Shown here piece by piece: positions 372-63,779 of a DNA stretch of 64,000 bases (the first letter of the stretch is position 1; each line of letters begins with the position of its first letter). Source of the DNA: Caerostris darwini. Taxonomy: Eukaryota. The stretch covers positions 899,513 to 963,512 of the forward strand of contig BPLQ01015363.1 in the NCBI GenBank assembly GCA_021605075.1, read 5' to 3'. The translations under genes were made by a program, and so were the position numbers. Below the pieces are notes generated by a model that saw only the letters and a list, made by a program, of their open reading frames with translations, was not told the origin of the DNA and did no database searches.

Positions 372-529
372 ATATCCAGAAACAGCTGAAGCTTTCAGAA
401 AAAGTAGATTGCCTGGGATTTGGGATTCTAGAAGAGTTGGAGAACGAATGAAATTGCCTATACCTGAAACATGGGAAACACAGATATCATCTCAAGGAAA
501 CAAACCTGAAGTTTGGGAAAAATTGATAG
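372..529 (+). CDS. TEP1: TEP1-like exon (TROVE domain part; ...NKPEVWEKLI)
   Basis: Acceptor cttaag|A, donor ATAG|gtagaa. Joins in phase to next exon giving EVWEKLIDNGKLPYMAMLRNL, matching Ro60 '[23 protein letters not shown]'. Confidence 0.5.
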
Positions 530-1994
530 GTAGAATCATTTATGTTATGACCTAAATGCAAATTTATATCAAATTTCTGCGAAGTTCCTACTCATAAAGG
601 AAACTAAACAAATATTTTTTCTTACAAAAGTAAAATTAGGGCTTATAACAAATTCTTAAATTTCAGTTATTTCATCTAATATTTGAAATCAATTGAAAAT
701 TCTGAGAAATTTGTTTTATAGTCCATTTTTTTCAACTGTTATTCATGATATGAATTATAAACAAAAAGTAAAACTATGAATAAATAAATAACTGTTCATA
801 TGTATAGAATTAGGTTTTGTTGGCTAACTGAGCTTATTTGTTTATATGTATTTTTTTATTTCTAGAATTTATGATTCATATTTTCAGTTGGTGTACAAGG
901 TACTTCAATGAAGTGTTTCTTCTGAAATCTTTATTTATTTATTTTGCTAATTTAAACATTTCTTAATAAATATTAATTTTAAAACATAATAGCTAATTAG
1001 TTTATTTAGGTTAGTTTGATTTCAGGAGATGGAAATAAAATTTCTCCTCTCATTCCTATATTAAACATTTGTTATTATTATAACATTTGTAATTATTAAA
1101 TATTAAATTGTTTTATTATATTATCATTTATTATATTCCTTTTTTAGTAATAATGTTTTTAAAATTAATAATATTCTTATCCATTAATATCCTAAATTAT
1201 ATTTTTTCATTGGGAAAAAATTAAAAAAAAATATATATTAATTACATAGCATTAATAGAATATAATAGAAGCTATCAACGTCTTGTTACTCGGTGTATAA
1301 TTTATCACTGCTTTAAAAACCATATTTTAACCTTTTCTACAAGTGTTTTTCTGACATAATAAAATCAATAAAAACAAGAAATAATGTCGATTATTAAAAT
1401 AATTTATTTTGGAAAAATTTCTGTTTTTGCATTTCTATTATTTAAAACAAATATTTTTAATATTTTGGTAAGAAAAAGCCAGAGTATAAACTTTTACACT
1501 TATGAAATTATTTAGTGTTCTACTGAATATTGTAATTTCAATACTAATATTTATCTTAAATTTGTGACATTTTTCTGAAATTGATAATTTATTAGTGAAT
1601 GAATTGTGAATTTTTAATAAGTTTTTTTTAATGACTTTATTTTGGTTTTCATTTATTATTTATTATCAATATGTATAAATTTATTGTATTTTATAATATG
1701 AAAAAGAAAAAATCAGAATTCTTGTGTTATTGGAATTTTGATTAGCATCCAGTGCATTACAGCATACACCAGCATATTACAATAAAATTCAAATTAAATT
1801 TTTTGTTATTATTAAATTCATTATTATGAATTATTATTATTATTAAATTATTTTTTTGTTATTAAAAACTATTAATTTATACTTATTCTCTCACATAGGT
1901 TATTTTTGAAGTAATTTTTAAAGTTATATTAAATAAGATACACTTTCATGGAGTATTTTACCTACATTTTTTTTAAATGTATATATATATATAT

Positions 1995-2227
1995 GGGTCT
2001 GATGGCCGAGTGGCTAGCGCTCGGTGCCATGGATGTTTGCAGTTGTTCGCAATCCACTTCAGATCCCATTCTAATATCGTAGAGCGTTGTGGGGGTAGTG
2101 TTACTCGCGTCTGTAGCATATCTTCACGCTACACGTGCTCTCTGGGTAATTCTAAATTAGCAATAGCGGTGCAGCCCTTGCTTATGGCATAATGACAACT
2201 GTGTTTGTATTGCCAGCTGCATTAGAA
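1995..2227 (+). mobile_element. tRNA-headed SINE copy (family A), flanked on both sides by (TA)n
   Basis: Head GGTCTGATGGCCGAGTGGCTAGCGCTC (tRNA A-box-like), body TGTTTGCAGTTGTTCGCAATCCACTT..., tail ...GCCAGCTGCATTAGAA, shared with copies at 29964-30262 and 58230-58414. Confidence 0.75.
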
Positions 2228-60266: not shown

Positions 60267-61758
60267 CACTCATGTCTATAAATTAAGGATAATGAAGTTC
60301 AGACAAAGAAAGAGACAGAAGCAAAACAAATTTGACTTATTTGTAAAGTCTATTTATTAAACAAAAGGTAAAGAGCAAAACAGATGCTATATGTTTGACA
60401 TAATTAATAAAAATTGCGATTTTTACTCCCTGGAGCAAATTTCAAAAAAGAACCTATTTACAAAAAACAGTATAACATGGTTAGTATGATGGTTAATATG
60501 GAGTATGTCTCCCGGAGGATGCAATACAGGCCTTACAACGCCTACGCATGCTGAGTATCAAATTATCAATCTGATCTTGGGGAATATTACACCACTCATC
60601 AAGCAATGCCCTCCGAAGTTCCGGTTGACAGGTGGGAGGGGGTTGACGGGCTGCAATTCGTCGGCCAAGCATATCCCGCACATGCTCTATTGGATTCAAG
60701 TCCGGTGAGTACGCTGGCCAATCCATAGGGGTGATATCCTCCAATTGAAGGCATTCGTCTACAATGTTTGCACGATGAGGACGGGCGTTGTCATCCATAA
60801 ACAGCAATTCAGCACCCATAGCGCTCCGAAACAAACGTATATGTTGTTCCAGAATGAAATCCCGATAGATGTGGCCTGTCATCGTTACACTCTGAACATG
60901 CAGGTCAGTTCTGGAACCAAGAATAATTCCTCCCCAAACGAGCCATCCTGCACCACCGTAACGGTGTCGTTCAATGGTGTTCTCTTGGTGGTAACGGGTA
61001 CCTGGCAATCTCCATATGAAAGTCCGGCGAGAATCAGACTGCAAACTAAACCTGGACTCGTCGGAAAACATCACACCAGACCACTGTTGCGGTGTCCACA
61101 ATGCATGCTCTCTACTCCAGGTTAATCGCAGGCGACAGTGAGTTGCGGTAAGTGGAACACATCTGACAGGCCTATGAGCATATAGACCAATGTGCCCTAA
61201 GCGTGCCAAGCGTTCACATGGTCTGCCTTGAAACTGTCGTACCGGTAGCTGACGAGACAGGTCTGATGCTGTGCTCCGTCTATTTCTTTTGGCAGTAACT
61301 GCTAAATACCGGTCCTCATTCGGCATTGTAACTCGGGGGCGACCTGTGCTGTAACATCTACTCACATTACCATCATCTTGGAATCGTTGCCAAAGCCTGG
61401 AGATGACACTCTGGGCGATTCCAAGTTCCTCGGATACTTCCAGCTGGGTACGCCCACATTCCAGTCGTCCGATAATTCTACCACGTAAAAAATCATCCAA
61501 ATGCTTCCATTGTGCCATGATTATGCGGTTATTGCACTTAAAGCGCTTGTGAACAATTTTACTTCTTTGCCACCATTCCTTGTATACCCCTCTCTTACAC
61601 TCTCGTCATTGTGACGTACTATCCGCGCCATTTGGTGGTTTCCTGTAATTTACATATTCTTCTTCAAGATGTGTGTGATAATTCTACAGATGAAATTTTT
61701 ATTTTAGAGTTCAATTTCTGTGTGATTCTGAATTATCCTTAATTTATGGACATGAGTG
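60267..61758 (-). mobile_element. Second copy of the intact Tc1-family transposon (1492 bp), inverted relative to the 40061-41557 copy
   Basis: TIR CACTCATGTCTATAAATTAAGGATAAT at 60267-60293 and its reverse complement at about 61730-61758, flanked by TA. Internal sequence is near-identical to copy 1. Confidence 0.9.
60493..61518 (-). CDS. Tc1 transposase, 341 aa; intact reading frame with a locally divergent segment (residues about 89-120)
   Basis: ORF track 60493..61518. Identical to the copy-1 protein except R4W, a 31-aa stretch (QLPVRQFQGRPCERLARLGHIGLYAH vs QLSSATGTTVSKQTVYRRLGHIDLYGR, suggesting compensating indels) and G to S in FRSAMG. Confidence 0.85.
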   Translation of the reverse strand: MAQWKHLDDFLRGRIIGRLECGRTQLEVSEELGIAQSVISRLWQRFQDDGNVSRCYSTGRPRVTMPNEDRYLAVTAKRNRRSTASDLSRQLPVRQFQGRPCERLARLGHIGLYAHRPVRCVPLTATHCRLRLTWSREHALWTPQQWSGVMFSDESRFSLQSDSRRTFIWRLPGTRYHQENTIERHRYGGAGWLVWGGIILGSRTDLHVQSVTMTGHIYRDFILEQHIRLFRSAMGAELLFMDDNARPHRANIVDECLQLEDITPMDWPAYSPDLNPIEHVRDMLGRRIAARQPPPTCQPELRRALLDEWCNIPQDQIDNLILSMRRRCKACIASSGRHTPY

Positions 61759-63592
61759 TAATTAACGATTTAAAAAGTACATGAAACATAATAAATGAAT
61801 ACCTCAGTTTTTGATTGGCGCTCCTTTTGACTTAATGAAATTAATATGTCTAAGAAGCAATGCATAAATAAACTTTTTCAGCAACTCTGAATTTATTTTT
61901 ATCTAAGCTGTTGTGTGAGTTCAATAGATTTTTTATTCATTTTGGACGTTTTTTTTTTTAGATTTGTAATTATCATAATGTTATTAATTTCCAATCGATT
62001 TCTAATCGGAGGATTAACTAGGCCCTGAAACTATTTTGATCCGACAACAAACCATTCTGCCATATTTTTTTTCTGTGATAAGGGGCATTGCCAAATTTAA
62101 ATATAAAATTTCCACCAGGTAATATTTTCTTTGGTCAAAAAAGCATTCTTCAAGTGTTGTATTTTGCTATTCAAAGTACATCATATCATTAATAATTTTC
62201 AGATGCCTTATGCCAATGATTGAAATGCTTCAGACTCATTATAAGTGGTTAATTCACTTTAGCATTTAAGATTCTAGTCGAAATTTTTTACCTTTAAAAT
62301 GTCAAACATGTTTGTAGTGACTGATTTCCGAAAGAGAAAAAATTCACTTTCAAAACTGAATATCATGTTATTAAATTTCAGTGCTGATGTTCTTTGGCCT
62401 TTTCACTGTCTGAAAATCTAATAACTGGTCATAAACGCCATGTGCCTTAAGGTCTATTGTCTGATGTCCATGGCTTACTGTATGAGTTAAAATGCTTTTT
62501 GAATAGATATAAAAAGAGGAATTTAAAAAACATAACAAATCTGAAACTGAAAAAAATTTAATGTTCAGATTAATGCACTTCAAAATGCGATCATACTGCA
62601 TTTTTGTCTTTCGCAGAAATTCTATTCTGAACTAAAGTAACTTATTTTACTTGTCTTTTTCAATTTTTTGGTAATATTTTTGGAATAGTAGATTTTTATT
62701 AATTTTTATTTGTCTTGTCTTTGGTAACAATAATTTGCATATGGTTTCTTTCCTAGAACTTTTAAAGAGCTTTATTATGAGAATATCACAAAATGAATAA
62801 TACAGTAATAAAAGAATCCTTATACAATATTTATCAATATTTTCATTCAGAACAAAATAAATTAATTAAAACAATGCAACTAATTAATATTATTGTTAAA
62901 AATATCAAAAAATCTAAAATGAATATATTTTTTACATAGAATTTAGACATGAATTAATTTATAATATTGAATTAATTTTCAAATTTGAATACAGAAAAGA
63001 AATTAAATAGTATGGTATTACTGAAAAAGTAAAATAATAATAAATACTATCCAAGGTACTGTCATGTAATGTGAAAAAAAAAAATGCAAACATATAAGTT
63101 ATGCAAAATTTTTGGCCGCCACTGTACCTTAAGAGACATTTCATATATTGCTACTTTATGAAAATTATATCTATTTTTAAAAAAATTATTTGGTACAAAA
63201 TTGTTGAAGATATTTTTAGAATTTTCCATTATCCAAAAATAGAGACCAAATGCGATACAACTGGAAGCTTTGAAAGCTGTAATTAAATGCATATAAATAT
63301 GATCTTATTTAAATGTGATGTATTGATTATGTTTTAAGTGGTTTTATCCAATTATGAGATTATTCGTTATTTTTTAATTGTTAAAATTTTTAATTTTACA
63401 ACTACTTTATTGTTAATTAAATTGAATTATTTGAATTGTATTCTATTATACTTTTGTAATTTTTATTTTATTATAACATTAATTTTATCTATTTATATTT
63501 AGTTTAATTGTATTAATGTGATTAGTGATAATATATTATTTATTAGGTATAAGATATTTCTTATGTTTACTTATTTTATTTTTTGCTTATAG

Positions 63593-63779
63593 GTTTAGAT
63601 GACAATGATTTATACATTCTTCTAAGTTTAGTTTTACTTGATAAGGAAAACAGAACATTTCTCACATTTAATGAAGTTATTAAACAAACAACAAAACTGG
63701 GACCTGATAATATGATGTCTCAAACTACCTATTGTTCCTTAGTGCATACAATTTGTTCTTTTGCATATGGCCATAGCAG
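63593..63779 (+). CDS. TEP1: TEP1-like exon (GLDDNDLYILLSLVLLDKENRTFLTFNEVIKQ...)
   Basis: gcttatag|GTTTAG acceptor, AGCAG|gtatga donor. G carry gives G-LDDNDL; TEP1/NWD1-type 'GLsExEL..lLsl' helix; ORF track 63583..63789. Confidence 0.65.

Follow-up and report, generated by a model that had tools for sequence, protein, structure and literature searches.

TEP1 (telomerase protein component 1, or vault protein p240), a vault-particle protein that binds RNA and cleaves NAD, is described from human and other metazoans and combines TROVE, DUF5920, DUF4062 TIR-like/NIR and NACHT domains, in this order. TEP1, NWD1, NWD2 and NPHP3 are the human DUF4062 proteins drawn in a recent study, with TROVE and vWA domains in TEP1 only, and NWD1, NWD2 and NPHP3 were reported there to have no NADase activity in vitro (10.64898/2026.05.01.722283). 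In the latter three, DUF4062 lies beside NACHT, and a helical domain and repeats come next. In Ro60 (TROVE2) and bacterial Rsr, which bind small RNAs, TROVE precedes a vWA-like domain, with which the Ro60 protein terminates. Bacterial DUF4062/NIR defence proteins (Swarozyc, Avs-NIR, Vulcan and Vesta) harbour a homologous TIR-like NADase domain with the same catalytic Glu and are often STAND/NACHT fusions. MVP orthologues have been reported from Chelicerata, along with a Tep1 homologue from a copepod that also has a second, truncated Tep1 copy (PMC11219742).

We analysed a window of 64,000 nucleotides of Caerostris darwini DNA. Judging from its sequence, it very probably contains the middle of an araneid-type spider's TEP1 orthologue, in 19 exons on the + strand (372-63779) that code for 981 aa, and the gene has further exons to either side. 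The family is known, and TEP1 is already annotated, in fragments, in related spiders.

Exon model and reading frame

A preliminary description had proposed 18 exons, starting at 372, with DUF4062 exons at 44200 and 47817 and an end at 63779. All of them proved real, with AG and GT flanks, and they join in phase on the + strand (372-63779) into an open frame of 949 aa without stops. A nineteenth exon had been overlooked at 11893-11988 (exon 5b); its addition gives a stop-free frame of 981 aa with GT-AG borders at 18/18 introns. The joins are predicted from phase, splice signals and homology. The exons measure 69-285 nt, and coding density, estimated earlier at about 4%, is 4.5% with 18 exons and 4.6% with 19. 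The introns had been given as 2-20 kb; in the 18-exon model they actually span 128 bp to 22.3 kb, the largest being ~20 kb once exon 5b is included. The exons, all on the + strand, are as follows.

Exon 1, 372..529, +: TROVE; AG acceptor, GTAGAA donor; 62% identity to TROVE proteins P0112/P0113
Exon 2, 2349..2458, +: TROVE, DNGKLPYMAMLRNLKNL motif; AG/GTTAGT; 55-67% identity to TROVE homologues
Exon 3, 6119..6279, +: TROVE, AVVNSRQTPLQFYEAF as diverged FPFRFF motif; AG/GTAACA; tblastn to P0117, E 0.021, 46%
Exon 4, 8413..8575, +: end of TROVE and start of vWA-like domain, GKTLVICD; AG/GTGAGA; matches P0109, P0008, P0115
Exon 5, 9436..9591, +: vWA-like/DUF5920; AG/GTAAGT, phase 0; aligns with P0109, P0008
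Exon 5b, 11893..11988, +: vWA-like/DUF5920, ending in ALKKIFEFYLKQHVVLREK; CAG acceptor, GTAAGT donor, phase 0/0
Exon 6, 31843..31991, +: vWA-like/DUF5920; AG/GTATGT; 67% to A. ventricosus P0001; DNA block conserved with L001
Exon 7, 36631..36699, +: AG/GTAAGT; 92% to C. extrusa P0002; conserved DNA block
Exon 8, 37690..37845, +: end of DUF5920, linker; AG/GTAAGT; 94% to C. extrusa P0002
Exon 9, 44200..44376, +: first half of DUF4062/TIR-like NADase domain, K387 and R433; AG/GTTTGT; 95% to P0002; Pfam DUF4062; matches 11gz_A
Exon 10, 47817..48053, +: second half of DUF4062, R455 and catalytic-Glu equivalent E486 in SITELE; AG/GTAGGC; 82% to P0001
Exon 11, 49085..49198, +: TEP1-type extension of TIR-like domain; AG/GTATGT; 98% to P0002; within the 11gz_A match
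Exon 12, 52125..52242, +: AG/GTAAAC; 67% to P0001
Exon 13, 52463..52639, +: start of NACHT, Walker A GTPGCGKTS; AG/GTAAGA; Pfam NPHP3_N/NACHT
Exon 14, 54181..54335, +: NACHT; AG/GTATAG; 83% to P0001
Exon 15, 56434..56578, +: NACHT, Walker B FVLVIDGLDHL; AG/GTATTT; 73% to P0003; 86% DNA identity to L001
Exon 16, 58969..59253, +: end of NACHT, helical domain; AG/GTAAGT; 73% to P0003
Exon 17, 59382..59514, +: helical domain after NACHT; AG/GTATTG; 76-78% to P0003/P0018
Exon 18, 63593..63779, +: helical domain, ends in phase 2; AG/GTATGA; 67-69% to P0003/P0018

Exon 1 opens on the third base of a codon, which places earlier exons upstream of the window, and exon 18 ends in phase 2, so the gene runs on past the window. 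No coding sequence was found in 1-371, upstream of exon 1, and no further exon in 63780-64000. The N-terminal half of TROVE, the TEP1 N-terminal repeats and the WD40 repeats would fall outside the window.

Support for exon 3 (E 0.021) and exon 5b is weaker than for the other exons. Because its motif has diverged to TPLQFY, exon 3 was picked up only when distant TROVE proteins served as queries in a permissive tblastn search; a regular-expression search between exons 2 and 4 returned no FPFRF-type TROVE motif. Phase continuity between these two exons requires exon 3. As for exon 5b, a strong polypyrimidine tract precedes its CAG acceptor, and it fills a 29-column gap at the exon 5/6 junction, with an invariant YL aligned. 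Its inclusion lifts DUF5920 (PF19334) from 22.4 to 31.3 bits, and only then above the cut-off of 27, the match now covering positions 15-199 of the 203 in the profile. Since exon 5b is in phase 0/0, its omission left the 18-exon frame unbroken.

Three other candidates were discarded. An alternative donor of exon 4 (GTAAGC, phase 1) leads into a stop in exon 5, and a + strand ORF at 17555-17968 (138 aa) has no Pfam match and no TEP1 similarity. The block 24217-24436, tried as a missing vWA exon, has stops in every frame and indels that are not multiples of three.

Domain order and conserved residues

Pfam analysis of the joined protein identified TROVE, DUF5920 (vWA-like), DUF4062 and NPHP3_N/NACHT, in this order. 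The TROVE match that the preliminary description had expected in the first exons was found (PF05731, 157.9 bits, E 6.1e-46), and it covers positions 246-442 of 442, i.e. the C-terminal half of the profile. The DUF4062 and NACHT matches expected on the joined exons were likewise obtained, DUF4062 (PF13271) with 52.1 bits (E 7.8e-14) and NACHT with 27.6 bits (E 3e-6), which barely exceeds the Pfam cut-off of 26.7; NPHP3_N scored 35.1 bits (E 2e-8). The motifs GKTLVICD, GTPGCGKTS (Walker A) and FVLVIDGLDHL (Walker B) are all present in the joined protein as described, and the TROVE motif reported as ALLRNL reads AMLRNL.

We mapped the functional residues of human TEP1 (10.64898/2026.05.01.722283) onto the spider protein. 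The human TEP1 TIR-like/NIR domain (PDB 11gz_A) matches with E 1.2e-54 and 40% identity over 213 aa, with two small indels. Spider E486 aligns with the human catalytic Glu E1008, and R433 and R455 align with R954 and R976; thus, two of the three active-site Arg residues are kept. The third, the substrate-site R908, corresponds to K387 in the spider protein.

The closest proteins are named 'telomerase protein component 1', with identities of 89% and 84% in the orb-weavers Caerostris extrusa and Araneus ventricosus, respectively, and 54% in Saccoglossus. The earlier identification as TEP1 is supported by these names, by the TROVE-vWA-DUF4062-NACHT order and by the 11gz_A match. For the N-terminal exons, 20/20 of the matches listed contain PF05731, and one of them is named TEP1. 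Many bacterial DUF4062 proteins also occur among the matches, with 35-45% identity.

Introns and a nested LRR gene

The introns had been described as filled with transposons. Transposons are indeed there, with at least seven Tc1/mariner-type insertions, one LINE fragment and SINE-like repeats, but the largest intron also carries a complete, unrelated LRR gene on the opposite (minus) strand (15703-22444). GC-rich islands make up ~20% of the window, six of them coinciding with Tc1/mariner ORFs, and the remaining intronic DNA is unclassified AT-rich sequence. Introns of this length are usual in large, AT-rich, transposon-rich spider genomes. No RNA genes were detected in the window by Rfam (gathering thresholds; vault RNA included) or ARAGORN. 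The block 24217-24436 is 84% conserved with A. ventricosus and devoid of a folding signal on both strands (z -0.4); a 5' UTR or a regulatory element of the nested LRR gene is the likelier explanation.

Probably a single functional gene

In A. ventricosus, C. extrusa and Trichonephila, the locus is annotated as several short models, and human NWD1 and NWD2 have DUF4062 beside NACHT without TROVE. Both facts would suit two adjacent genes, a Ro60-like TROVE/vWA gene (to ~37845) followed by an NWD1-like DUF4062-NACHT-WD40 gene from 44200. However, single proteins bridge TROVE and DUF4062 (P0109), the vWA-like domain and DUF4062 (frog P0008), and DUF4062 and NACHT (P0001); this counts against a split into two genes. 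The codon split between exon 8 (phase 2) and exon 9 reads ...VPK-W-HTVRVF, identical to P0001 and P0002, which span that junction. Exon 9 opens mid-codon, with no start codon or first-exon context before 44200. Nor does the frame end after TROVE and vWA as in Ro60, or begin with DUF4062 as in NWD1/NWD2: the exons for TROVE and DUF5920 come before DUF4062 and are in phase with it, and the frame continues in phase through DUF4062 into NACHT. No Ro60 chain was present among the PDB sequence matches at E<=0.01, where two chains named 'TROVE domain-containing protein' match weakly (E 0.002), whereas the database matches of the TROVE part include a named TEP1. The alignment of the DUF4062 region to human TEP1, interrupted only by its two small indels, also speaks against such a pair of genes. 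We therefore regard the two-gene arrangement as very improbable.

The very low coding density, the transposons in nearly every long intron and the divergence of some motifs (TPLQFY; R908 to Lys) might be expected of a decaying pseudogene or non-functional remnant, its frame open by chance amid transposon-rich DNA. Set against this are 981 stop-free codons, the GT-AG borders of all the introns, and intact Walker A, Walker B and catalytic Glu. In addition, comparison with the syntenic A. ventricosus locus gave a dN/dS of 0.17 at a dS of 0.93 (652 codons), and DNA conservation between the two species is limited to the exons, the LRR gene and one noncoding block, the introns not being conserved. 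This dN/dS and conservation nearly confined to exons indicate that the gene is under purifying selection, in agreement with the earlier view of a functional gene; a remnant is hardly credible. As one locus was covered and the copepod has a second, truncated Tep1, the gene might also be a lineage-specific paralogue, with the canonical TEP1 elsewhere in the genome. Against this, the synteny with the A. ventricosus TEP1 fragments extends to the nested LRR gene, and no second, more TEP1-like spider protein family is found among the matches listed, so that a paralogue appears just as far-fetched. In A. ventricosus, the neighbours on the same strand are a DUF4062 fragment, a NACHT fragment and then, downstream, a 1085-aa WD40 model, which lends indirect support to the WD40 repeats that the preliminary description had expected beyond position 64000. 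The portion in the window is very probably the middle third of an intact, ordinary spider TEP1, a routine orthologue and not a new kind of gene.

Proposed function and comparison with known systems

By analogy with mammalian TEP1, the TROVE/vWA module would bind small RNAs (vault RNA), and the NACHT and WD40 parts would form an NLR/APAF-1-like oligomerizing ATPase. NADase activity of the spider DUF4062 domain would be an extrapolation from human TEP1, and we lean slightly towards the idea that spider TEP1 acts as an active TIR-like NADase within chelicerate vault particles. If so, the NAD+-cleaving function of TEP1 would be ancestral to bilaterians and kept in arthropod lineages with vaults, and the replacement of R908 by Lys and the diverged TROVE motif might signal an altered substrate or RNA specificity.

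Beyond annotation, the locus matters little: its exons, among them a small one not joined before, combine into an uninterrupted 981-aa model. It illustrates neatly how automatic gene prediction fails on small exons within ~20 kb introns. The TEP1 NADase domain, described in 2026, keeps its catalytic residues in a chelicerate gene under purifying selection, in agreement with reports that Chelicerata retain vault components, which winged insects lost.

The spider protein resembles human TEP1 in the order of its domains, and its TIR-like domain is 40% identical, with the catalytic Glu and the Walker motifs conserved. It differs by the Lys at R908 and by TPLQFY in place of the FPFRF-type motif, and the gene is very stretched (4.6% coding, introns to ~20 kb, a nested LRR gene). 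The TEP1 fragments of A. ventricosus, C. extrusa and Trichonephila clavipes have 84-89% protein identity and share exon junctions and the opposite-strand LRR neighbour; those annotations are pieces of 200-455 aa, whereas here a single 981-aa frame includes the TROVE exons and an extra small exon. NWD1, NWD2 and NPHP3 are drawn without a TROVE/vWA module; in contrast, the window's protein contains TROVE, and TEP1 is its nearest counterpart. Ro60 is devoid of the DUF4062 and NACHT domains. Finally, Swarozyc, Avs-NIR, Vulcan and Vesta are prokaryotic anti-phage proteins without TROVE, whereas the window contains a spliced animal gene.

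Exon structure of the TEP1 gene

Homologues from spiders and other sources were placed on the window by tblastn, and the junctions were then read directly. All 18 plus-strand exons of the preliminary description were recovered at the positions it implied, and they join into 949 codons in phase with zero stops. Every one has AG just before it and GT just after; sizes range from 69 to 285 nt, for a coding density of 4.5% in the 18-exon model. The motifs GKTLVICD, GTPGCGKTS and FVLVIDGLDHL are all present in the joined exons. The earlier observation is thus confirmed apart from small corrections: the TROVE motif given as ALLRNL reads AMLRNL, and the introns, said to be 2-20 kb long, measure 128 bp to 22.3 kb in the 18-exon model.

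Exons of the TEP1 gene (1 to 18 from tblastn and junctions; 5b added here)
372-529, +, exon 1
2349-2458, +, exon 2
6119-6279, +, exon 3
8413-8575, +, exon 4
9436-9591, +, exon 5
11893-11988, +, exon 5b, phase 0/0 (ttttttttcag/...AAAAAG/gtaagt)
31843-31991, +, exon 6
36631-36699, +, exon 7
37690-37845, +, exon 8
44200-44376, +, exon 9
47817-48053, +, exon 10
49085-49198, +, exon 11
52125-52242, +, exon 12
52463-52639, +, exon 13
54181-54335, +, exon 14
56434-56578, +, exon 15
58969-59253, +, exon 16
59382-59514, +, exon 17
63593-63779, +, exon 18

In an alignment with TEP1-like proteins spanning the vWA-like region, the junction between exons 5 and 6 is the exact site of a 29-column gap. A search of the 22-kb intron for open segments in phase 0/0, bounded by an acceptor rich in pyrimidines and a donor close to consensus, yielded six candidates, including 11893-11988. 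Its product, RLHQNVTSFRSSRALKKIFEFYLKQHVVLREK, fills the gap and aligns the invariant YL. With it, the Pfam score for DUF5920, the family of the vWA-like part after TROVE, rises from 22.4 bits, below the cut-off (profile positions 103-199), to 31.3 bits (cut-off 27; positions 15-199). We therefore added this segment as a predicted exon 5b, on the basis of splice signals, alignment and Pfam; the Araneus ventricosus DNA compared starts downstream of this region. The resulting model has 19 exons and encodes 981 aa.

Domain content and identity

Pfam analysis of the concatenated exons returned the three domains that had been anticipated: TROVE (E 6.1e-46), DUF4062 (E 7.8e-14) and NACHT (E 3e-6, 27.6 bits versus a cut-off of 26.7), as well as NPHP3_N (E 2e-8). 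The match to TROVE spans positions 246-442 of the 442-position profile, which places the first half of the domain upstream of the window. Exon 3 (6119-6279) reads TPLQFY in a TROVE motif where other TEP1-like proteins read FPFRFF or FPFQYF.

The closest proteins to the coding pieces are those of the orb-weavers Caerostris extrusa (89%) and A. ventricosus (84%). The N-terminal exons match only TROVE-bearing proteins, one of which is named telomerase protein component 1. The DUF4062/NACHT exons match proteins of that name from three spiders and Saccoglossus, followed by many bacterial DUF4062 proteins. Residues 375-587 match PDB chain 11gz_A ('Telomerase protein component 1') with an E-value of 1.2e-54, 40% identity and just two small indels across 213 residues; no Ro60 chain appears among the PDB matches at E<=0.01. 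The proposal that the gene is a TEP1 orthologue is supported.

That the locus harbours two separate genes instead of a single TEP1 gene is very unlikely. The last codon of exon 8 is split in phase 2 and completed by exon 9, and proteins of both A. ventricosus and C. extrusa cross this junction with identical residues. Among the homologues retrieved, P0109 runs from TROVE through DUF5920 into the beginning of DUF4062 within a single protein, a frog protein (P0008) links the vWA-like part to DUF4062, and P0001 from A. ventricosus links DUF4062 to NACHT. At the sequence level, the exons thus appear to belong to one TEP1 gene.

Conservation in Araneus ventricosus

Between the window and the syntenic A. 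ventricosus locus, nucleotide similarity is found only in the TEP1 exons, an LRR gene and a single noncoding block of 220 bp. The 652 aligned codons give a dS of 0.93 and a dN of 0.16; the resulting dN/dS of 0.17 makes purifying selection on the TEP1 coding sequence clear, in line with the earlier view of a functional gene rather than a pseudogene. In the public annotation, the A. ventricosus orthologue is split into at least three gene models (BGPR01000017.1, 3488908-3540620; loci L001 and L002), all on one strand.

A. ventricosus gene models
455 aa, vWA end, DUF4062, NACHT start
250 aa, NACHT end
1085 aa, WD40, ~6 kb beyond the 250-aa model

Such a series is expected of a fragmented TEP1, and it supports the earlier expectation of WD40 repeats beyond the window.

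The longest TEP1 intron houses the LRR gene.

Nested gene and noncoding block
15703-22444, -, LRR gene inside TEP1 intron 11988-31843 (ORFs 22444-21440, 21509-19779, 19268-18438 and 15996-15703)
24217-24436 (5474-5690 of L001), noncoding block

The LRR gene is complete, and its product of ~1,240 aa consists of LRR_8 repeats. The N-terminus is signal-like (MRFFDKVCLLLFLTNVDS...), a Cys motif resembles LRRCT, and the C-terminal tail is hydrophobic, an architecture that looks chaoptin-like. In A. ventricosus an LRR gene for 1236 aa occupies the equivalent place and orientation (81% DNA identity over 1.4 kb). The noncoding block, at 84% identity between the two spiders, is better conserved than the majority of TEP1 exons. 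Stops interrupt every frame of the block, its indel lengths are not divisible by three, and it gave neither an Rfam match nor a folding signal (z about -0.4 on each strand). Its position ~1.8 kb upstream from the ATG of the LRR gene means that it may be a 5' UTR exon or promoter of that gene.

Mobile elements in the introns

The window is AT-rich (GC 0.29), with islands of GC 0.36-0.43 that total ~20% of it; six of them overlap Tc1/mariner transposase ORFs. The DNA is animal, not prokaryotic. The introns had been described as TE-filled, which is fair as to the transposons, but the longest one also accommodates the LRR gene.

Repeats in the window
~3980-5010, -, Tc1/mariner-type transposase remnant
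~7000-7640, -, Tc1/mariner-type transposase remnant
~10160-11160, -, Tc1/mariner-type transposase remnant
~33420-34460, -, Tc1/mariner-type transposase remnant
~35800-36220, +, Tc1/mariner-type transposase remnant
40056-41559, +, Tc1/mariner copy, 1.5 kb
60265-61763, -, Tc1/mariner copy, 1.5 kb
~26200-28520, -, non-LTR retrotransposon fragments
1977-2230, short interspersed repeat
28970-29230, short interspersed repeat
29980-30260, short interspersed repeat
30700-30840, short interspersed repeat
32770-33040, short interspersed repeat
58225-58400, short interspersed repeat

The two 1.5-kb copies are 96% identical, in opposite orientation, and flank TEP1 exons 9-17; such a pair could mediate inversion of ~19 kb of the gene. 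The copy at 40056-41559 may have been recently active, as its terminal inverted repeats measure ~30-40 nt and its 342-aa transposase (HTH_Tnp_Tc3_2 and DDE_3) is free of interruptions. The other carries a short, locally garbled frameshifted patch. The fragments at ~26200-28520, AP-endonuclease-like and reverse-transcriptase-like by eye, have strongly negative GC and AT skews and ORF pieces including ...QAGFRSGVGTIEQIFTLKNIIEQ...; two ORFs tested from them gave no Pfam match. The short repeats form a family with three to six copies in the window, with translations including …WRSVPQVSGSNPGGAMDVC… and …GFEPEIFDTER…. They look like tRNA-derived SINE heads; ARAGORN made zero tRNA calls in the window. 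The A. ventricosus introns bear different transposons (Tc5 HTH, RVT_1, Exo_endo_phos and gag), and the insertions are thus lineage-specific.

Proposed function and comparison with known TEP1 proteins

A TEP1 is expected in spiders, since the literature reports MVP orthologues from Chelicerata and a Tep1 homologue from a copepod (PMC11219742). Vault RNA and telomerase RNA are described as ligands of the TROVE/vWA module of mammalian TEP1 (Poderycki et al. 2005, as cited in PMC3762200), and by analogy the spider module would bind a small RNA. DUF4062 was shown to be a TIR-like NADase in two 2026 preprints, in which TEP1 activity requires E1008 and is lowered by R908A and R976A, with R954 as the third active-site arginine (10.64898/2026.05.01.722283; 10.64898/2026.09.04.749371). 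When 11gz_A is numbered so that these four residues land on three arginines and a glutamate, R908, R954, R976 and E1008 correspond in the spider to K387, R433, R455 and E486 (18-exon, 949-aa numbering). The catalytic Glu is thus conserved along with two of the arginines; the remaining one has undergone a conservative change to Lys. The spider DUF4062 would likewise cleave NAD+, and both Walker motifs of NACHT are intact. Given these family functions, kept catalytic residues and Walker motifs, we propose that the protein is most likely a vault component that binds RNA, is NLR-like and cleaves NAD+.

The conservation of NADase catalytic residues in a chelicerate and a continuous gene model that includes an additional exon are useful by-products. 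The TEP1 family is well known, and the copies of related spiders are already annotated, in pieces. One of the preprints (10.64898/2026.05.01.722283) draws the human DUF4062 proteins TEP1, NWD1, NWD2 and NPHP3, and only TEP1 is shown there with TROVE and vWA. No feature of the gene described here departs from known TEP1.
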